32,000 nt of DNA from an uncultured bacterium (lineage in GTDB: Bacteria; Patescibacteriota; Gracilibacteria; UBA1369; PNNO01), in assembly GCA_963704705.1 (NCBI GenBank), contig OY969931.1:1200001-1232000 (forward strand), given 5' to 3'. Position numbers and translations under genes: made by a program. Numbering within the stretch: position 1 is the stretch's first letter; every line of letters starts with the position of its first letter. This document shows, piece by piece, positions 843-9,971 of this stretch. The notes under the pieces are model-generated. The model was not told where the DNA came from and did not search any database. It saw only the letters and a program-made list of their open reading frames with translations.

Positions 843-999
843 ACATAACAGGCGCATTAACGGTTCGGGTTTTTTTTGTCGGGCGGCCTAAAAGCACGCC
901 CAAAAATCCCTCACCCAACTTTTTTAACGGTGGTGACATGCCTTGCGGCATGTTATTATGCCACCGTCAAAAAGTTCGCTAATGCGCCGGACGTTAGCG
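843..999 (+). repeat. attC site 2 (157 bp)
   Basis: R'' is ACATAAC (843-849) and R' is GTTAGCG (993-999). Stem GGCGCATTA (851-859) pairs with TAATGCGCC (980-988). Near-identical to attC6. Confidence 0.85.
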
Positions 1000-1063
1000 G
1001 AAATTGGGCTGATTTTAAAAGCGACTTAATATATAATTCAAATAATTCTTAACCTAAAATTCT

Positions 1064-1642
1064 ATGAATCAAACATGGAAAATCATTGTCGCCGTCATTA
1101 TTACAGCAGTCGTTGTCGGAGGTGGCTTTTACTTCTGGCAACAGAGCAAGGAAGAAACTCCACAAGTTACTCGAAAAACCGAAGATCAAACACCAGCTCC
1201 AGCAGCTGAAACCGAAAAAACGTTCACTGGTAGCGGATTTACATTCACATACCCCGTAGAATATACAGCTGATAACAAAGGACTTTGGACAACGGACGGT
1301 TATCAAAGACATATAAATCCGCCTGAAGCTTGCGATACCTGCCAGATACCAGAAGTAGAAGTAAAAGCCACCACTTCAAATAAAACATTGGATCAACAAA
1401 TTATTGCTGATTATGACTTGCCAGGAACAACACTGGCAGAGATGTCTAAACAAACTGGCATCAAATATGAGCAAATAAAAATCGGCGACAATGATTTTAT
1501 CAAAATCACGGTTAGCGACATGTTCGATGTAACAGGATATTACACAAAACATAATAATCAGATTGTCGCTTTTAAAGTTTATTTGACGGAAAAAGATAAT
1601 AAGGCATTAAAAGATATTATTTCGACATTGAAGTTTAATTAA
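1064..1642 (+). CDS. Hypothetical membrane-anchored protein (cassette gene)
   Basis: 192 aa with an N-terminal TM helix (WKIIVAVIITAVVVGGGFYFW) followed by a soluble domain. No family recognised. Confidence 0.7.
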   Translation: MNQTWKIIVAVIITAVVVGGGFYFWQQSKEETPQVTRKTEDQTPAPAAETEKTFTGSGFTFTYPVEYTADNKGLWTTDGYQRHINPPEACDTCQIPEVEVKATTSNKTLDQQIIADYDLPGTTLAEMSKQTGIKYEQIKIGDNDFIKITVSDMFDVTGYYTKHNNQIVAFKVYLTEKDNKALKDIISTLKFN

Positions 1643-1657
1643 AATCAGCCCAACATC

Positions 1658-1775
1658 AGATAACAAAGGCTATGCGGCTACGATCCTTTCAGTCGCTACG
1701 CCCATATTGTGCGGTGGTGGCCCTTCGCGGCCAATTATACCACCGCACAACATCGCATAGCCTTGGCCGTTAAAT
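1658..1775 (+). repeat. attC site 3 (118 bp)
   Basis: R'' is AGATAAC (1658-1664) and R' is GTTAAAT (1769-1775). Stem AAGGCTATGCG (1666-1676) pairs with CGCATAGCCTT (1754-1764). Inner arm is GGTGG-GGCCcttcgcGGCC-AATTATACCACC. Confidence 0.8.
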
Positions 1776-1877
1776 GAAATTGATTATATTTATGTCGTAT
1801 GATAAATTTTGCTCCTTTAACAAATAAAGCATGAATAAAGTTTTGCATTTAAACATTGAAACATCTGAACCAGGTAA

Positions 1878-2090
1878 ATGGTTAGATATATTACATGTCT
1901 AAGATTAATGCATCTCGATGGCGTTGATACTATGGCCGATGATGGCAATACAAAAGCAGTTTTAGCAGTTTGTTTAGAAAAAGGAGCTGAAGTAAAAAGT
2001 GCTATTCAAAGGCATGGATTAACAATTACTGACGAATGTGAGAAAGGATTTTACAGCACCTCTAGAATTAAGATGATCAACTTCATTTAA
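1878..2090 (+). CDS. Hypothetical small protein (cassette gene, start uncertain)
   Basis: 70-codon ORF whose TAA lies inside the R'' of attC4. An overlapping 23-codon ORF (1831-1902) in another frame makes the true start, or a frameshift, unclear. Confidence 0.3.
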   Translation: MVRYITCLRLMHLDGVDTMADDGNTKAVLAVCLEKGAEVKSAIQRHGLTITDECEKGFYSTSRIKMINFI

Positions 2091-2185
2091 GAGGCGTATA
2101 TTCAGTTCCGCTCCTTCGTCGCTCCACCCAAATTTACATTTCGCTATGCTCAATGTAAACTTTGTATATACACCAGACGTTAAAT
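2085..2185 (+). repeat. attC site 4 (101 bp, short variant, R'' mutated to AAG)
   Basis: R'' is ATTTAAG (2085-2091) and R' is GTTAAAT (2179-2185). Stem GGCGTATAT (2093-2101) pairs with ATATACACC (2166-2174). Lacks the GGTGG/ATTATACCACC arm. Confidence 0.7.
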
Positions 2186-2312
2186 GCAATTTATTTTTTA
2201 TCCTCCCTGTTTTCTAAAGACTTTTTCTTCTTGACTTGTTGAAATATAATTACCGGCATGAAAAACAACCGGTCCAAAAACTGCAAAAAATCCAGCAGTT
2301 TCTTTATCGTTA

Positions 2313-2624
2313 TTATAAATAGAAACCAAAACACATTAAACCTATAGTTAGTATAAAAGCTAACCACATACCTATACTTTCATTTCTTGTATTTGATCTA
2401 ATAATTATATTTTCTAAACTTTGTCTATGATTAGATTGCTTTTCGGCCATTGTAATTATTCTATCGGCTGCTCCAGGAATAATTTTTTCATATCCTTCTA
2501 GAATATTTGGGGGGGGTAATGGCCCAGAAAAAGAAGTTGCTACAGCTGTAAATCTTTTTTCTATCCTTTGGCTTGGTTTATTTTGCAGTTTTTGAGTACT
2601 GCTTTTCTTCTTCTTTTTGTTCAT
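2313..2624 (-). CDS. DUF2335-like membrane protein (inverted cassette gene)
   Basis: 103 aa. SGPLPPPNILEGYEKIIPGAADRIITMAEKQSNHRQ matches my memory of the DUF2335 signature. A C-terminal TM helix is present. Overlaps the upstream ORF by 47 nt. Confidence 0.6.
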   Translation of the reverse strand: MNKKKKKSSTQKLQNKPSQRIEKRFTAVATSFSGPLPPPNILEGYEKIIPGAADRIITMAEKQSNHRQSLENIIIRSNTRNESIGMWLAFILTIGLMCFGFYL

Positions 2625-2808
2625 AATTATCTATTGAAATATAAATTGCATTTCCAACATTATCCCAATCATTTTTTAAGGCAAAATAATCTGCATCCTC
2701 CTGATAGCAGTATTCGTCTAATTTACCATATAAATCAATAACCCTACTTGCACCCTTAAAAAATGTTGGTGAAGTGCATAATTTAGTAGTTTTTAATTCG
2801 TCATTCAT
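2578..2808 (-). CDS. Hypothetical small protein, first gene of an inverted two-gene cassette
   Basis: 76 aa ORF with ATG 28 nt downstream of an extended -10 promoter. No family confidently recognised. Confidence 0.5.
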   Translation of the reverse strand: MNDELKTTKLCTSPTFFKGASRVIDLYGKLDEYCYQEDADYFALKNDWDNVGNAIYISIDNYEQKEEEKQYSKTAK

Positions 2809-2835
2809 AATAAATATTTAGTCGGTCGGATTAAA

Positions 2836-2864
2836 ATTATAACAAAATATTTTTTAATCAACAA
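2836..2864 (-). promoter_or_regulatory. Sigma70-type promoter for the inverted cassette operon
   Basis: On the minus strand: TTGTTG (2864-2859), 17 nt spacer, then TGT-TATAAT (2844-2836). This is an extended -10. Confidence 0.5.
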
Positions 2865-2892
2865 TCCAATTAATAAATCAAAAATAAACTTC

Positions 2893-3025
2893 ATTTAACA
2901 GGTGTATGTTCGGCTCCACTCGCTATGCTCGTTTCGCCCATATTTGCCTTGTTCGCTTTGGCGGTGATAAAATTATACCGCCACGCTCACGGCGGCAAAC
3001 ATCGCACATACACCGGCCGTTGTAT
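2893..3025 (+). repeat. attC site 5 (133 bp)
   Basis: R'' is ATTTAAC (2893-2899) and R' is GTTGTAT (3019-3025). Stem GGTGTATGT (2901-2909) pairs with ACATACACC (3006-3014). Near-identical to attC11. Confidence 0.85.
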
Positions 3026-3108
3026 GCCATCGGATAGGGGGATTTTGTTAATTTAGCCCTTTACTTTTCTTGTAAAATATAGCAGAATAGCATCCTTTGA
3101 ATCCATTT

Positions 3109-3755
3109 ATGCCAGAAAACAAAATACTTCTTACAGGATTTGAGCCATTCGGCCCTTATCGCTACAACGTAGCTGAACAGCTAGTTGAAGCGCTAAATGG
3201 TGAAATAATTGATGTACGGCAGAACACACGCCTGCAAATAATTGGCGTAAGCTTGCCAATTAACTTTGGTACTTTTAGAAAAATTCTCGAAGCAGCAATT
3301 GAAAGCACTAAACCAAAAATAGCATTAGGATTAGGAATGGATTTTAAAGACCACGATCATCTCTCGTTAGAATTAGCTGCTCATTCAATTCCAAATTACT
3401 GCAATGATATTCAAGATACTGAATGTAATATTGGACCAAATGGCTCCTAGATAGTTTGCCAGAAACAATAAGAATTCCTAATGAAGAACACATAAAAAGT
3501 GCCATTTCTGCTATTAATGGAATTGAGTTTTCTGAAGATGCAGGGCGGCATATGTGCGAAACTGTGCTAAGAGATCTTATAAGAATGAGTGAAGGTGGCA
3601 AAAAATTTCAACCGGGTTTTATACATTTGCCGCATACAGCTGATCTTCTATCAGATTCAGTACATTTAGATAAACATGAGAAATCAATGTCAATCGAGCA
3701 GCAAATAGCAATAGTAAAAAAAGTAATAAAAAGTATTGGCACTTTTTATTTATAA
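3109..3755 (+). pseudogene. pcp: Pyroglutamyl-peptidase I (peptidase C15) family gene, frameshifted
   Basis: The N-terminal part (ILLTGFEPFG.., LELAAHS) ends at TAG 3448-3450. The C-terminal part (..SEDAGRHMCETVLRDLI.., FIHLPH) continues in another frame that is open from 3429. The Pcp-like motifs are split across the two frames. Confidence 0.7.
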
Positions 3756-3781
3756 CAAAATCCCTTTTTCAATCCAACAGC

Positions 3782-3934
3782 ATACAACAGGCGCATTAAC
3801 GGTTCGGGCTTTTTTGACGGCTGGCTTCGCACAGCCAAAAATCCCTCACCCAACTTTTTTAACGGTGGTTTCACGCCTTGCGGCATGTTATTATACCACC
3901 GTCAAAAAGTTCGCTAATGCGCCGGACGTTAGGC
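3782..3934 (+). repeat. attC site 6 (153 bp)
   Basis: R'' is ATACAAC (3782-3788) and R' is GTTAGGC (3928-3934, perfect GTTRRRY). Stem GGCGCATTA (3790-3798) pairs with TAATGCGCC (3915-3923). Confidence 0.85.
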
Positions 3935-3956
3935 GGCATCTCTTAATCAATCTATT

Positions 3957-4253
3957 ATGAAATTATATACAAAAATATTGTTAGCATTATTTATTGGAAT
4001 AGTTCTCACCTTACTTTCAATATCATATAAATCATCTTATGAATTTCATGTACTTGAATACAGTAGTTATGAAACACGACCTTCCTGGGGATTCCCTTTG
4101 CAGTATGTATACGATAATGATGTTAGCTCACCAGTAATGTCAATGAATGAAGAAGATACATTCATTTTTACATATATGATTGGGGATGTATTAATTTACT
4201 CATTTTTGGCTTTCATACCATTTTTAATATTTAAAAAAAGAGACACCGCCTAA
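3957..4253 (+). CDS. Hypothetical two-TM membrane protein (cassette gene)
   Basis: 98 aa with hydrophobic N- and C-terminal segments. The stop TAA is embedded in the R'' GCCTAAC of attC7. Confidence 0.6.
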   Translation: MKLYTKILLALFIGIVLTLLSISYKSSYEFHVLEYSSYETRPSWGFPLQYVYDNDVSSPVMSMNEEDTFIFTYMIGDVLIYSFLAFIPFLIFKKRDTA

Positions 4254-4365
4254 CAGCAAACTATCCGGTTCTGCTCCTTGCAGTCGCTACACCCAACTTT
4301 GCCAGTGGTGGCGCTTCGCGCTATTATACCACTGTCAAAGTTCGTATAGTTTGCGGACGTTAGGT
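4248..4365 (+). repeat. attC site 7 (118 bp)
   Basis: R'' is GCCTAAC (4248-4254, perfect RYYYAAC) and R' is GTTAGGT (4359-4365, perfect GTTRRRY). Stem GCAAACTAT (4256-4264) pairs with ATAGTTTGC (4346-4354). Confidence 0.9.
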
Positions 4366-4373
4366 GGCATAAT

Positions 4374-4411
4374 ATAAAAAAAGACCCACTTTTGGATAAG
4401 CAGGTCTTTTT
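4374..4411 (-). terminator. Possible intrinsic terminator of the inverted lipoprotein gene
   Basis: AAAAAGACC (4378-4386) pairs with GGTCTTTTT (4403-4411) around a 16 nt loop. The minus-strand transcript ends in a U-run. The stem is weak, with only 4 GC pairs. Confidence 0.4.
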
Positions 4412-4426
4412 AGTAAACTTAAATAA

Positions 4427-5037
4427 TTAAAATTCGTAAGTAACCGTTTCTTTCTGTTTATCGCCATCGGTCACCGATAAAAGCATTGTTCCGTGTTCAG
4501 ATTTATATAATTTTTTATAATGCTGCTTAACTGTAGCTAAACCTATTTTTAGTTCATCTTTAATAAACATTTCGCATGTAATAGCCTCTGGATCTGTATC
4601 ATTCACAATCAAAATCGTAGCTTGAACCGGAGCAGATTCCATAAAAATTGCAGGCCAATAAGCTAAGAAATTTTCATTACCACAACCTGTGTAACCAACT
4701 TTTACTGTTATTGTATCTCCTTCAATAGTCACCCAATTGCCACAAGTTTCATTGCCGATAGAAAATGATCCTTTTTTGAGATCTTCAAATGATTTATCAC
4801 TTCCTAAAGGATAAGCACATCACTTACAGCAACTGGCTCCGATGGCGACATATCCTTCGGTTCCACAACGGTTGGTTCCTCAGACACATCTATCATTATA
4901 TCTGAATCTTCTGGTTGCGTGTCAGTAGTTGAAACTGTTGGTTGTTGTTCTTCCTGAACCGGCTGAAACCAAGAACAGCCAGAGAGTGTTACTGTAGCAA
5001 TTGATAATAAAGCTACAAGCGTAATTACTTTTTTCAT
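4427..5037 (-). pseudogene. Lipoprotein gene, apparently frameshifted (inverted cassette gene)
   Basis: ORF 5037-4804 encodes a lipoprotein signal (LSGC|SWF) plus an acidic linker and stops at 4804. The second ORF's frame is open from about 4800 and reads coding-like (..GSDKSFEDLKKGSFSIGNETCGNWVTIEGD..) with no ATG before GTG 4732. This suggests a single gene broken near 4800. Confidence 0.5.
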
Positions 5038-5130
5038 AAGTGTATATGGTTAAAGTTACTTATTTAATAACAACCTTAGATAACAATAACACATTTTTTA
5101 TAAAAAGTTGCGATATTTTTATATTGCGCC

Positions 5131-5278
5131 ACCTAACAGGCGTATATCCAGTTCCGCTCCTTTCACTCGCTCCACCCAAATTAGCCTTTCCTCATTCCGG
5201 TGGTTTCACGTCTGACGACGTGATATTATACCACCGTCACTCGTCAGGCTAACTTTGTATATACGCCGGACGTTGTAA
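5131..5278 (+). repeat. attC site 8 (148 bp)
   Basis: R'' is ACCTAAC (5131-5137) and R' is GTTGTAA (5272-5278). Stem GGCGTATAT (5139-5147) pairs with ATATACGCC (5259-5267). Inner arm is GGTGG-TTTCACGTCtgacGACGTGA-TATTATACCACC. Confidence 0.85.
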
Positions 5279-5296
5279 GAAATTTTTAAATTATTC

Positions 5297-5814
5297 ATGA
5301 AAAAAGACAATTTTATTGAAAAATTACCGTTAGTAAAATTCTCAACTTATTCTGAAATTCAAAAACAATATGTGTTAGATTTTGGTGAGAACATTATTAA
5401 GTTAATGAAAAATTTTTCTCCAACACAAGTAGATGGCAATAATTTCTTAAAAGCATGCAGGCATATTTGGTTCTGGGAACTTGGAGCATATGAAGTAGTC
5501 CAACAATTGACGTTGAAGGTTGTTTTGATGATAAAACCAAGACAAAAATAAATGCACTTAAAATAAATCTCGCAAAGCTGAGAATGCCATTCGCAAAACA
5601 AGAACTTAGAGGAGAGAAGAAAAGAAAATTCGTGGAAACAGAACCTTCAGTTACTTCATTTGCAGAGGGGGATATAGGCTTTACTATAAAAGGAGAAAAA
5701 TTTTACTTTAAACCACTCTATAATGAGTTTAAAAGAGTAATTGGTGGTATCAAACCAAAAAATATAAATGCAAAGATTGAGAACCAAAAGGAAAAAAGTA
5801 AAAAACAAAATTAA
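5297..5814 (+). pseudogene. Hypothetical cassette gene split by a frameshift
   Basis: ORF 5297-5551 and ORF 5584-5814 overlap as open frames. The second frame is open from 5494 (SSPTIDVEGCFDDKTKTKINALKINLAKLRMPFAKQ..). This fits one roughly 170-codon gene with a frameshift around 5494-5520. Confidence 0.5.
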
Positions 5815-5824
5815 AAAAAACTTC

Positions 5825-6246
5825 TTACAACAGCGGGCTAGCCGGTTCGCTCACTAAAATTATTATTTTTTAAAATCTATATTATGAACAATATCTTAAT
5901 AATCATCCTGATCATTGTTAATATCTTTCTTTTATTTGCAATTCTCAGGATTCACAAACAACTAAAATGGATAAAGAAAACATATGACAGAAACTTTAAA
6001 CTAGCTCACGGAATATTGAATACCATAAACAAAAAAACAAAAGCTGATGAAAAATTGATATTACAAAAAAATGGGGCAATGAGGTTCTGGAGTCCTGATG
6101 AATATCAAGAAACTGTTGAAAGAATAGAGGATGTTAAAGAAATTCTTGAAAAATCGATCGAAAAGGATAAAAAATAATAATTTTTACGCTCGCTTACCCA
6201 AGTTGTCACAACTGTAACAACTTCGTCTAGCCCGCGACCGTTGTAC
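5825..6246 (+). repeat. attC site 9, composite (422 bp), with a 330 bp ORF-bearing insert inside its first internal arm
   Basis: R'' is TTACAAC (5825-5831) and R' is GTTGTAC (6240-6246). Stem GCGGGCTAG (5833-5841) pairs with CTAGCCCGC (6227-6235). The 5' arm CCGGTTCGCTCAC and the 3' part ACGCTCGCTTACCCAAG.. are separated by positions 5855-6185. A perfect 16 bp inverted repeat bounds the insert: 5856-5871 AAAATTATTATTTTTT and 6169-6184 AAAAAATAATAATTTT. Confidence 0.6.
5884..6177 (+). CDS. Hypothetical N-terminally anchored small protein nested inside attC9
   Basis: 97 aa with an N-terminal TM helix (ILIIILIIVNIFLLFAIL) and a charged helical tail. The double stop TAATAA lies within the right arm of the 16 bp inverted repeat. 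Confidence 0.5.
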   Translation: MNNILIIILIIVNIFLLFAILRIHKQLKWIKKTYDRNFKLAHGILNTINKKTKADEKLILQKNGAMRFWSPDEYQETVERIEDVKEILEKSIEKDKK

Positions 6247-6360
6247 GAAAAATACTTCCCGGCTTATTTCTGAAATCCATAACTTTTAATGCAAGTAAAC
6301 AAATTGGATTTTCTTTTTTTGATAGAGGGGAGCTTCCTGCCTTTGGCAGGAAGTAATGAA

Positions 6361-6396
6361 AAATAAATATAAAATGGCTCGCCTTACGGCGAGCCA
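6361..6396 (-). terminator. Intrinsic terminator downstream of the inverted DUF4256 gene
   Basis: TGGCTCGCC (6375-6383), loop TTAC, GGCGAGCCA (6388-6396). The minus-strand transcript continues UUUUAUAUUUAUUU. Confidence 0.5.
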
Positions 6397-6425
6397 AAGA
6401 AAAATAAAGTTCAAAAACCAATTTT

Positions 6426-6842
6426 TTAGACCCTTAGCCAGCCGTGGAAGCCCCTATCGTCATAAGGATAGTTCGGAGGGTTCCCAGACACGGTGACACC
6501 ACCGTGATCACGAAACGCAGCGAGCGCAACCTTTTTGTTTCTTGTTTCTTCCGGGGTATCAACCCATGACCATGAGTCACTAAATAAGCCTTTAACAAGC
6601 CTAGCAAGTTTCTCAATTTGCTTTTCGTTTAAAAGACCTCCAAGACCCATATCTTTTTTCGCCATATCAACCGCGTTACCTTTTGGGTTATATCCTTGCC
6701 TTTCAGCTATTTCCTGTCCTTTACGGTCATAACAAACCATTCTTCGTCCTTTAGGGCTTTCTTTTGAACAATCCCAGAATTCATATTCTCCCGTTTCTTC
6801 AACAAATTCCACTACATCAGGTTCACCGCCGGTTCTTTCCAT
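6426..6842 (-). CDS. DUF4256 family protein (inverted cassette gene), 5' end apparently disrupted
   Basis: MERTGGEPDVV..ESPKGRR..CYD..RGFHGWLRV matches my memory of DUF4256. The frame stays open upstream to 6949 (VPLKARFEANLKRHKDIEWSRVEARLKEAAPEKLWSLNE) without a start codon. Confidence 0.7.
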   Translation of the reverse strand: MERTGGEPDVVEFVEETGEYEFWDCSKESPKGRRMVCYDRKGQEIAERQGYNPKGNAVDMAKKDMGLGGLLNEKQIEKLARLVKGLFSDSWSWVDTPEETRNKKVALAAFRDHGGVTVSGNPPNYPYDDRGFHGWLRV

Positions 6843-6949
6843 TTCATTGAGTGACCATAGTTTTTCAGGAGCTGCTTCTTTAAGTCTTGCTTCAACTCGT
6901 GACCATTCAATATCTTTGTGGCGTTTTAAGTTTGCTTCAAAACGAGCTT

Positions 6950-7294
6950 TTAATGGTACTTAAAAGCTGTTCTGTTTGTTCGGGTAATTAAAGTGCGTTC
7001 AGGCTTTTCAACTTCCTCTTTTTCTTTTTTCTCAACTTGCAATTCATTATTATCATCATCTGTTGAATTACCTCTCTGTTCCAATAATAATGCATTAACT
7101 GCAGCCCTAACGGTTGGGTCATCAGGGAGCGGATCTACTCCCATTTTTGCATTTTCGATCATAAGTTCAAGTTTCAACCTATCTTCCGGATCCAGATGCC
7201 CTAAATCCATTACTTCTTCATACCCCAACTCTGTTGCCATATAATCATTATATGCATCTTCGTTATTCACTGGTTTTGGTGTAGATTCATTCAT
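6950..7294 (-). CDS. Hypothetical acidic protein (inverted cassette gene)
   Basis: 114 aa starting from ATG 7294 (MNESTPKP..). The longer TTG start at 7354 coincides with the -35 box of its own promoter. Confidence 0.5.
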   Translation of the reverse strand: MNESTPKPVNNEDAYNDYMATELGYEEVMDLGHLDPEDRLKLELMIENAKMGVDPLPDDPTVRAAVNALLLEQRGNSTDDDNNELQVEKKEKEEVEKPERTLITRTNRTAFKYH

Positions 7295-7325
7295 TTTATA
7301 AGTGTTACTTATAACAAGGTTTTTA

Positions 7326-7354
7326 ATTCTAACTATATTTCGGCAAATTGTCAA
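7326..7354 (-). promoter_or_regulatory. Sigma70-type promoter of the inverted cassette operon
   Basis: On the minus strand: TTGACA (7354-7349), 17 nt spacer, TAGAAT (7331-7326). It lies about 32 nt upstream of ATG 7294. Confidence 0.6.
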
Positions 7355-7512
7355 GTATAAATTATTATGGTCTTATATACAAACATTTTATGGTGTTTTG
7401 GCTCGCAAAATTTACCCCTTTTATTCCCCTCTTTTACTCGCCAAAACTAATCCAATTTGTATTTCCAGATAATAATAAGGCATTTAAAAGAAAAATCGGG
7501 AAAGTATTCATC

Positions 7513-7654
7513 GTACAACAGCTGACTATGCGGTGAGGGCTTTTTTTCGTGCGGCTAAAGCACGCATCAAAGCCCTCACCCAACTTTGACCGTGGTGAGC
7601 ACTTCGTGCTAATTTTACCACGGTCAAAGTTCGCATAGTCAGCGGACGTTGTAT
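7513..7654 (+). repeat. attC site 10 (142 bp)
   Basis: R'' is GTACAAC (7513-7519) and R' is GTTGTAT (7648-7654). A 12 bp perfect stem GCTGACTATGCG (7521-7532) pairs with CGCATAGTCAGC (7632-7643). Arms: GTGAGGGCTTT..AAAGCCCTCAC, and CTTTGACCGTGGT-GAGCACttcgGTGCT-AATTTT-ACCACGGTCAAAG. Confidence 0.9.
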
Positions 7655-8511: not shown

Positions 8512-8853
8512 ATGCCGTTTCTCTACTTCCCGATCATTCTACTGATCATCGAATTCCTTATTATCATGCCAATCCCGCTCTTTGTAGCAGGCAGGTTGAT
8601 GAAATTACCAATAAAATATACTGAAGCTTTATGGATTACTTTATTCGCTGGTATTATTGGATCACTTGCCTCAATGGCACATATCTTAGTGGGTTTAGCT
8701 GTGTTTTTAGGAATTCTTTATTATGAGTTGAATAATAAGTTTCATCCTAAACCAATAAAGATTATTTTAATAATTCTTATAGATCTTGCTGTAGTTATTG
8801 GAATAGAGTTTCTAAAACCTTATTTATTATATGGTGGACTCTCACTAATGTAG
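8512..8853 (+). CDS. Hypothetical polytopic membrane protein (last cassette)
   Basis: 113 aa, almost entirely hydrophobic segments. Confidence 0.6.
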   Translation: MPFLYFPIILLIIEFLIIMPIPLFVAGRLMKLPIKYTEALWITLFAGIIGSLASMAHILVGLAVFLGILYYELNNKFHPKPIKIILIILIDLAVVIGIEFLKPYLLYGGLSLM

Positions 8854-8865
8854 TTGAAATACTTC

Positions 8866-8920
8866 GGCCAACAGGCGTATATACTGTTCCGCTACTCTCC
8901 ATGTAAACTCTGTTTATTTA
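8866..8920 (+). repeat. attC site 12, degenerate terminal remnant
   Basis: R'' is GGCCAAC (8866-8872), followed by AGGCGTATATACTGTTCCGCTACTCTC..CATGTAAACTCTG, which aligns to attC4 and attC8. The middle is deleted, the 3' stem has decayed, and there is no GTT core. Confidence 0.5.
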
Positions 8921-8961
8921 TAAAAGGAGTATGATGTATTTAATTAACCTTACTGTAAACT

Positions 8962-9117
8962 ATGATAAAAGGAAATTTTATTGGTGCGGCAATCGTTGCA
9001 ATAATCTACACGGTCTATATTTTAATGAACCCCCTTCCAACAAAATGGCAAATGGTGTTGGTATTAGTGGTTCTTAATGCTTTGACTATCGTGTTGATGT
9101 CTTTTGCATTCAAATAA
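8962..9117 (+). CDS. Possible 51-aa two-TM mini-protein upstream of the CPBP gene
   Basis: Hand-translated: MIKGNFIGAAIVAIIYTVYILMNPLPTKWQMVLVLVVLNALTIVLMSFAFK*. It falls below the ORF-track length cutoff. Confidence 0.3.
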   Translation: MIKGNFIGAAIVAIIYTVYILMNPLPTKWQMVLVLVVLNALTIVLMSFAFK

Positions 9118-9200
9118 AAACACCAATAATCTACTTTAGTAAAAGCTCTTGAGAACTTATGATATTATATAAATGTCATAAATTTTGCTAAAGAATAAAT

Positions 9201-9971
9201 ATGGCCATAAAAAATTTTATTAACTGGAAATTATACTTCTTATTACTGGCGGCAAGCGTAATTTCAATTGTTGCGATTATGCCGTATGTACTAACCATTC
9301 AGGCAGATGCATTAAAAAACCTCCCGATTTCATTGCCTTTATTGGTATTAATTTCAGTTATTCAAAGCACCGTGCTATTTGCAATTTTTCTTTTAATTGG
9401 TTTAAAACTTGCAAAAACACTTGGATTGCGAATTCCCATTCTTGAAAGTTTTATTGCCAAAAAAAAGCCAGATGTAGATGTTAAATCGATTATTAAATTA
9501 TCTGTATTGCTCGGTATTTTGTCAGGGATAGCAATTGTTTTATTTGACTTTGTATTTTCAAAACTGGGTGTAAATTTGATGGAACAGGTACATGCTCCTG
9601 CATGGCAGGGATTTTTAGCTTCATTCTATGGCGGAATAAGTGAAGAAATTGTGATGAGATTATTTTTCATGGCTTTAATAATCTGGCTAATTAGCAAAAT
9701 ATTTAGATTAAAAGGCAAAGCGATTGAAAACAATTTACTAATGTGGACGGCAATTATTATTGCCGCGATTATATTCGGTCTTGGACATTTACCAATTACT
9801 GCAGCAATAACAACTATAACCCCAATGGTGTTCTTACGTGCCATTTTACTAAACGGAATCGGGGGCGTTGTGTTTGGATGGCTCTATTGGAAAAAAGGCC
9901 TGGAATCAGCCATGATTGCTCATTTCTCAGCAGATATAATATTACATGTATTGCTGCCGTTATTGTTTTAA
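9201..9971 (+). CDS. CPBP (CAAX protease / Abi) family intramembrane metalloprotease
   Basis: 256 aa polytopic protein. EE motif (GISEEIVMRLFF), FGLGHL and AHFSADI match the three CPBP signature motifs. Confidence 0.8.
   Translation: MAIKNFINWKLYFLLLAASVISIVAIMPYVLTIQADALKNLPISLPLLVLISVIQSTVLFAIFLLIGLKLAKTLGLRIPILESFIAKKKPDVDVKSIIKLSVLLGILSGIAIVLFDFVFSKLGVNLMEQVHAPAWQGFLASFYGGISEEIVMRLFFMALIIWLISKIFRLKGKAIENNLLMWTAIIIAAIIFGLGHLPITAAITTITPMVFLRAILLNGIGGVVFGWLYWKKGLESAMIAHFSADIILHVLLPLLF

Follow-up and report, generated by a model that had tools for sequence, protein, structure and literature searches.

Integron attC sites are commonly viewed as short non-coding hairpins placed after the cargo gene, and detection tools as well as folding models assume so. 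Extra DNA inside attC sites is known from IS1111-attC elements and group IIC-attC introns, which are targeted to attC, measure 1.2-2 kb and carry either a transposase or a reverse transcriptase along with a ribozyme; IS1111-attC elements in particular have an IS110-family (DEDD) transposase and are about 1.2-1.5 kb long. In pdif (XerC/D) modules of Acinetobacter plasmids, cargo is bracketed by inverted double-stranded 28-bp core sites for a Xer-type tyrosine recombinase. In classical attC sites, such as the Vibrio cholerae repeats of sedentary chromosomal integrons, the variable terminal structure (VTS) is short and non-coding, with described lengths of 20-100 nt as per the authors of IntegronFinder, and the whole site measures about 57-141 bp (PMC4889954). 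A long VTS cuts recombination by up to four logs under replicative conditions but has no such effect when the site arrives single-stranded, and cruciform extrusion is limited to sites with a small VTS (PMC8946536). Here we describe attC9, an attC-type site with a complete 97-codon gene inside its hairpin, present in a 32,000-nt stretch of DNA (hereafter the window) from an uncultured bacterium of the Gracilibacteria (contig OY969931.1, positions 1,200,001 to 1,232,000, forward strand). We consider it probable that attC9 is a genuine attC-type site of a chromosomal array of the candidate phyla radiation (CPR), and a functional variant, representative of a widespread sub-family, in which one arm holds a gene in its apical loop and a selected clamp closes that loop.

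Positions 5825-6246 of the window make up one attC-type site with cognate R''/L'' and L'/R' boxes (Table 1). Both ends had been described as normal in the initial annotation of this DNA, and every box was indeed found at its place. The L'' and L' boxes are complementary at 9/9 positions, and the window contains no second such pair. R'' and R' are complementary at 6/7 positions with the AAC...GTT triplets kept, and the spacer between the R and L boxes is 1 nt on one side and 4 nt on the other. The base of arm 1 is formed by GGT paired with ACC, and has an internal loop in which TCGCTC is present on both sides as a direct repeat. Alignment with the 35 other sites of the array located 329 nt of extra DNA (5856-6184) in the loop of arm 1, between GGTTCGCTCACT and TACGCTCGCTTACCC, in line with the earlier statement that about 330 bp replace the apex of this arm; comparison with the uninterrupted sites of the array thus places the insertion point in the arm 1 loop. 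As a consequence, the distance from AAC to GTT is 414 nt in attC9 (5829-6242), as compared to 90-193 nt in the other 35 sites. The inverted repeat bounding the extra DNA had been reported as a perfect one that prolongs the arm, which holds good, though its length is 17 nt and not 16. A membrane-anchored ORF (open reading frame) of 97 aa with a double stop in the right repeat had also been noted; it was found as such, with an N-terminal transmembrane helix, and it closes with TAATAA within the repeat. The repeat and the ORF, for which a search of further copies had been advised, are each single-copy in the 1.37 Mb genome. The sequence of 5825-6246 is base-for-base identical in a metagenome contig of the European Nucleotide Archive (ENA) and in a Logan contig, making three independent assemblies in all, and is therefore not an assembly artefact.

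The boundaries on both sides of attC9 follow the integron cassette rule, G|TT. The tail of the preceding site attC8 (5272-5291) is complementary to the R'' flank of attC9 (5812-5831) at 15/20 positions, against 9/20 for a non-cognate control, and for the tail of attC9 (6240-6259) and the R'' flank of attC10, the next site (7500-7519), the figure is 17/20, against 12/20 for the control. Cassette 9 thus extends over 5273-6240 and has two genes, one of 172 aa upstream of the site and the 97-aa gene within it. In its plan attC9 is like classical attC sites, which have AAC...GTT R boxes, imperfectly paired L boxes and an asymmetric unpaired spacer; as in classical systems, the bottom strand is predicted to be the better-folding one, the site forms the 3' end of a cassette, and the array is one-directional, headed by a tyrosine recombinase and divided at G|TT boundaries. 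Unlike in classical sites, the VTS of attC9 measures about 380 nt (reaching about 900 nt among its relatives) and contains a whole gene, which is closed off by a clamp stem that covaries; sequence conservation of the L box and of the adjoining arm 1 base ('frame') extends across very distant lineages, and the recombinase of the array lies under the cut-off of the IntI family.

For folding as DNA, the ORF of attC9 was replaced by a tetraloop. The bottom strand was predicted to fold in the same way as the ordinary neighbouring site a32: an R stem of 7 bp is followed by a bulge of 3 nt on one side only and by an L stem of 9 bp, beyond which two arms leave a junction. The predicted energy was -34.3 kcal/mol for the bottom strand (z = -8.1) and -27.2 kcal/mol for the top strand. 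Beyond the L stem the predicted fold leaves a single unpaired base, a candidate equivalent of the extrahelical bases that mark the bottom strand in classical sites. We propose that, on the single-stranded bottom strand, the R boxes and the 9-bp L boxes would pair as they do in the neighbouring sites, with a three-way junction beyond the L boxes. Arm 2 would form a short hairpin, while arm 1 would have a GGT/ACC base around a TCGCTC//TCGCTC loop, be lengthened by the 17-bp AT-rich clamp and end in a 295-nt apical loop corresponding roughly to the 97-codon gene. The clamp would offset the long loop and keep the two halves of the site in register, and the recombinase would then meet normal R and L boxes and cross over at G|TT (6240|6241). 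In view of the published behaviour of long VTS, a VTS of this size would probably fold only on long single-stranded DNA, as in replication gaps or incoming DNA, the clamp making such folding feasible. The embedded gene would always be co-inherited with cassette 9 and be expressed by read-through in the direction of the array rather than from a promoter of its own, no convincing one having been found for it in the sequence. From sequence we infer both the recombination competence of attC9 and the read-through expression of its gene.

Gene-bearing sites recur in other genomes. A DNA search of 40 relatives with the cassette sequence gave matches at both junctions, and none at the ORF, in a genome of the same genus (G001) and one of the same family (G010). 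In G001, the same type of site carries a different gene, encoding a 112-aa lipoprotein, at the same position, and G010 has two further cases, one with two ORFs and a reduced right half and the other with a non-cognate right half. The 24-nt left half was present four times in 205 genomes of the order, each time in a gene-bearing site (4/4). A look for the empty site in related genomes had been suggested initially; only gene-bearing copies were met, both in the 40 relatives searched with cassette DNA and in the 205 genomes searched with the left-half pattern. Homologues of the 172-aa gene (30-42% identical) led to no empty site either, the two contexts inspected being unrelated high-GC DNA. The sole uninterrupted analogue of the frame among all the DNA compared is site a21 of the same array, GGTTCGCTC-GTTGCACT-TCGCTCTCCCA.

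Genome and metagenome collections were then scanned for GGSCTAGYCGGTTCGCTC, and chance matches in high-GC DNA were set aside. The left half, YAAC-AS-GGGCTAG-CCGGTTCGCTC-NCT, was found in about 38 distinct low-GC public loci, which are labelled as Patescibacteria, Gracilibacteria, Peribacteria/Peregrinibacteria, Saccharibacteria or Buchananbacteria, with a single contig assigned to Promethearchaeota by binning. Nearly every locus has an ATG 5-35 nt past the frame, from which an ORF of 50-230 aa begins. In about 24 loci, a right half that is cognate or has one mismatch follows 324-966 nt downstream; three others have a non-cognate right half, and the remaining ones reach the end of a short contig or lack a recognisable right half. 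The embedded proteins are mutually unrelated, and are mostly small membrane proteins or lipoproteins, along with one GNAT acetyltransferase. The upstream partner of R'' could be identified within one mismatch in 22 related loci, 21 of which have an ordinary outside gene as well; in the L080 locus (8813-9521), the cassette consists of nothing but the site and the 194-aa gene embedded in it.

Two of these loci deserve separate mention. The archaeal label belongs to L021, a 6.8 kb contig (JAEORV010000082.1) binned as a Promethearchaeota archaeon, which carries a gene-bearing site with a frame nearly identical to that of G001; the same sequence occurs on a 34.6 kb metagenome contig (L121, Ga0180436_10000673), and either misbinning or cross-domain presence of such arrays would account for it. 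In L116 (7023-8132), both the embedded and the outside gene of a cassette seem to encode GNAT-type acetyltransferases, the former with a Pfam match and the latter as judged by eye only.

The region of attC9 is 75% A+T and some relatives have non-cognate halves, both of which would suit an origin from the halves of two independently decayed attC sites, with the repeat arising by chance in AT-rich DNA. This was the outcome that, according to the initial annotation, would undo its own interpretation. We regard it as refuted: the perfect L''/L' 9-mer complement is unique in the window, the longest inverted repeat in 300 dinucleotide shuffles of 5855-6185 was 12 nt as against 17 nt in attC9, more than 20 further loci have ORFs enclosed by the same paired halves, and related genomes hold other genes at the same position in this type of site.

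The clamp arms vary from locus to locus and yet pair, as in AGAATAAAAATTTATTTTT/AAAAATAAATTTTTATTCT, AAACAATCACT/AGTGATTGTTT and AAATAAAATTGTTTTAATTC/GAATTAAAACAATTTTATTT. The longest perfect repeat between cognate left and right segments had a median of 12 nt (up to 20 nt), whereas the median for non-cognate segments was 7 nt despite their shared conserved outer bases. When 20 sites were aligned, 78% of the cells were paired as compared to 54% in shuffles, and double-sided changes numbered 95 as compared to 41. The covariation score was 0.55 against 0.18, none of 500 shuffles scored as high, and slid registers gave 0.14-0.22. In the homologous embedded genes of L080a and L110 the C-terminal codons differ, and the left arm has changed to match. 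A stop codon lies within the right clamp arm in 20/23 sites, and the ATG 0-18 nt past the left arm. Judged by these substitution patterns, the clamp is under selection for pairing.

A second set of compensatory changes concerns the L boxes. Homologous embedded genes are shared by L080a and L110 (64% identity over the whole site) and by L069b and L103 (about 90% nucleotide identity), and yet each pair contrasts a site whose L boxes are CGGCATAG/CTATGCCG with one that has CGGGCTAG/CTAGCCCG. On the evidence of these alignments, two-base changes in the L boxes have been compensated across 350-690 nt in lineages that were already gene-bearing. This compensation is the strongest indication in the sequences that such sites are used in their gene-bearing form.

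Certain observations weigh against a functional gene-bearing site, and against attC9 being a good example of one. Arm 2 of attC9 is without the apical GGTGG...ATTATACCACC kept by most members of the family, and this copy may be partly decayed or less active than its relatives. By analogy with the four-log drop in classical systems (PMC8946536), its long VTS might leave it nearly inert. The recombinase of the array scored 96 bits against the IntI model TIGR02249, the cut-off of which is 265, and Xer proteins of control genomes match this model too. Three chimeras, namely G010a (L009 1527-1945), L025 and L138, have L'' GGGCTAG and an embedded ORF in the left half, joined to a right half whose L' box is unrelated; given at least three such chimeras with non-cognate L boxes, some gene-bearing copies are dead. 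The pair counts come from an alignment in which each site was registered on its best diagonal, and this favours pairing, although the comparison of cognate with non-cognate segments is free of this bias. Lastly, covariation by itself would fit folding of DNA or of RNA alike.

The last point raises the explanation that the clamp acts mainly in RNA, pairing the leader with the 3' end for message stability, processing or translation control, and that its attC context is incidental. The stem does bracket the ORF almost exactly, and in the absence of an own promoter the embedded gene would be read from a longer transcript, both of which agree with a role in RNA. The compensated L boxes and the neighbour-like R/L geometry are, however, not needed for any RNA function, G-U type pairs make up only about 9 of the 313 paired cells of the clamp, and the clamp is retained in locus L061, where the ORF is inverted. 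We consider this explanation unlikely. Slightly less likely still is that insertion into the loop inactivated attC9, with the repeat as a leftover without present role; the strong reduction of recombination by a long VTS in classical systems, the deleted apex of arm 2 and the existence of chimeric non-functional relatives would agree with it. Against such inactivation, pairing in attC9 is intact in the clamp (17/17) and the L box (9/9) and nearly so in the R box (6/7), the family-wide covariation of clamp and L boxes postdates the embedding of genes, and conservation is higher in the frame than in the outside gene next to it. The functional gene-bearing site remains our preferred interpretation.

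The frame was compared with the outside gene in L054 and L118, homologous cassettes whose outside genes share 69% amino-acid identity. Their left frames are identical, their embedded ORFs are unrelated and their clamps differ; homology ends right after GGTTCGCTCGCTAA and restarts at GCTCGCTCACCC. Similarly, G001 and L021 have near-identical frames and different embedded genes, while L103 has two modules in one site, with an extra ORF, homologous to that of G001, ahead of an L069b-like ORF. Modules of gene plus clamp thus seem, from these comparisons, to have been exchanged between sites within the conserved frame. Homologous recombination in the frame would be the simplest cause of the exchange, since it predicts chimeras such as G010a, L025 and L138 and would also explain the single L-box sequence of the sub-family. 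In L061 (1361-1850), the site and the lipoprotein ORF embedded in it are on opposite strands and the stop codon of the ORF abuts the left clamp arm, which suggests that the DNA between the arms was inverted or that either orientation is possible on insertion.

The initial annotation had left two readings side by side, namely that a hairpin-ended element had inserted into the apex, or that this attC accommodates a variable region of 0.4 kb. The second is retained and extended to a gene-bearing family, and the first is left only as a possible route of entry. In its developed form, the first holds that a small mobile module, made of an ORF with terminal inverted repeats of its own, inserts into arm 1 loops; it concerns the origin of the sites and is partly compatible with their function as described above. 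Unrelated ORFs and clamps in the homologous cassettes L054 and L118, different genes in G001 and L021, the opposite strand of the ORF in L061 and the two modules of L103 are all as such a module would leave them. The repeats, however, covary instead of being conserved like ends bound by a transposase, repeat and ORF are single-copy in the genome, and neither a transposase nor a target duplication is present, the TCGCTC repeat occurring in uninterrupted sites as well. The same 17-mer clamp surrounds different ORFs in the window and in L128, and recombination in the frame accounts for swaps and chimeras alike. The product of the embedded gene has an N-terminal transmembrane helix followed by a helical tail, was modelled by AlphaFold2 as helical with low confidence (pLDDT, predicted local distance difference test, 66), and had no significant match in Pfam and none in PADLOC. 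Among 1.8 billion representative proteins, the sole homologue beyond the own assemblies of the organism was P0002 (41% identity, E 3e-12), the gene of which resides in an ordinary, non-cassette gene cluster without flanking repeat, thereby indicating that the clamp is not native to the gene and telling against a mobile module as well. We think a mobile module doubtful, although less so than the RNA and inactivation explanations. An equally tentative hypothesis of capture supposes that genes are taken up almost ORF-precisely into the arm 1 loop of an existing frame and locked in by the clamp, which would represent the long-sought process of cassette making, with the site built around the gene.

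Among the elements known to place extra DNA inside attC sites, neither IS1111-attC elements nor group IIC-attC introns resemble the inserts described here, which are unrelated cargo genes with a covarying flanking repeat. No Rfam family reached the gathering threshold anywhere in the window and no transposase or reverse transcriptase domain was detected in the sole ORF of the 329-bp insert, which bears out the earlier exclusion of both classes. Elements of the MITE (miniature inverted-repeat transposable element) or hairpin-ended type are likewise short units with perfect terminal inverted repeats, but the insert of attC9 is single-copy, coding and free of target duplication, and its ends are variable and compensatory. 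Fused multi-gene cassettes move two genes together, as cassette 9 does; they have lost the intervening attC, whereas the second gene of cassette 9 lies between the cognate halves of an intact site. L103, with its two embedded ORFs, may itself be a fusion of two gene-bearing sites. Both pdif modules and attC9 bracket cargo, the halves of attC9 being complementary strands of one folded site with integron-type boxes. In a full-text literature search, neither ORFs located in attC sites nor integrons of CPR bacteria were found to have been described, in keeping with the initial remark that no described class of ORF-in-attC element was known, and gene-bearing attC sites are apparently an undescribed variant of integron recombination sites.

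In these sites the cargo lies within the hairpin, occupying 300-900 nt, and compensatory evolution spans that distance. Should these sites prove to recombine, interruption by a whole gene does not bar a site from use by structure-specific recombinases, present surveys overlook a class of cassettes in CPR and related lineages, and cassette shuffling requires that very long single-stranded DNA be exposed in the cell. With a near-identical frame around dozens of unrelated genes, the question of how genes become associated with attC sites becomes directly testable.

Table 1. Features of attC9 and of cassette 9, in window coordinates.
Feature	Position	Strand	Remark
R' (GTT 5272-5274) and tail of attC8, start of cassette 9	5272-5291	+	inferred crossover G|TT 5272|5273
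'Outside' gene of cassette 9, 172 aa	5297-5814	+	function not assigned from homology
R'' flank and R'' box TTACAAC	5812-5831; R'' 5825-5831	+	AAC triplet present
L'' box GCGGGCTAG	5833-5841	+	perfect complement of 6227-6235
Arm 1 left base GGTTCGCTCACT ('frame')	5844-5855	+	conserved in about 38 public loci
Clamp stem, left arm AAAATTATTATTTTTTA	5856-5872	+	17/17 complementary to 6168-6184
Embedded gene, 97 aa	5884-6177	+	second stop codon 6178-6180
Clamp stem, right arm	6168-6184	+	holds last two Lys codons and both stops of embedded gene
Arm 1 right base TACGCTCGCTTACCC	6185-6199	+	from alignment with array sites and related loci
Arm 2, 10-bp hairpin	6200-6223	+	without apical GGTGG...ATTATACCACC of most family members (e.g. 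L093)
L' box CTAGCCCGC	6227-6235	+	perfect complement of L''
R' box GTTGTAC (6240-6246) and tail of next cassette	6240-6259	+	inferred crossover 6240|6241

The host genome has 35.5% G+C, and the window starts within its cassette array. The array is headed by the tyrosine recombinase gene (genome 1182392-1183192), from which 36 co-oriented attC-type sites extend up to about window position 8900. These share a common plan. On the left, YAAC is followed by 1-2 bases, a 9-nt L'', CC-GGTTC and a variable arm 1 closing in ACCCAA; on the right, arm 2 (usually a GGTGG hairpin, then ATTATACCACC) is followed by GTTCG or CATCG, L', 4-5 bases and GTT. A direct repeat of TCGCTC, or a near variant, flanks the internal loop of arm 1 (window 5844-5854 and 6187-6198) in gene-bearing as well as short sites, and this conserved unpaired motif may be a protein contact. 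Its two copies were considered as a target duplication, which was rejected as uninterrupted sites, for example a21, hold both. An AAC at the inner end of the left arm was considered as a nested R box and was also rejected, the matching GTT being usually absent from the right arm. Three attC sites of 190 nt (genome 1185249-1185440, 1186044-1186234 and 1188082-1188272) contain about 85 nt of AT-rich, non-hairpin filler in arm 1; they may represent an intermediate size class or the remnant of a lost embedded gene.

The 172-aa gene is split into two frames here by a missing G near 5501 and is whole in two other assemblies. When window 895-7650 was compared with L005, an ENA contig of the same organism, 17 single-base indels were seen in 6.7 kb. 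A Peptidase_C15 gene (3109-3755) and a lipoprotein gene (4427-5037), like the 172-aa gene (5297-5814), look frameshifted here and are whole in L005. The 'gene graveyard' appearance of the array is probably due to assembly error or to very recent strain variation.

GC skew was too noisy and weak to place the origin, or the bottom strands of the array relative to replication. Over the array (genome 1183200-1209200) there are about 19 perfect inverted repeats of 15-18 nt spaced 150-3000 nt apart, against about 0.3 expected by a rough estimate, examples being window 1079-1094/1483-1498, 1121-1136/1357-1372 and 7676-7691/8051-8066. Some of them lie within coding sequence of a single cassette and are found again in the duplicate of that cassette, and whole cassettes may be shaped for single-strand folding. 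The last site of the array (window 8866-8900) consists of a left half only, with R'', L'' and the start of arm 1; beyond it lie AT-rich DNA and genes for membrane proteins, which mark the end of the array.

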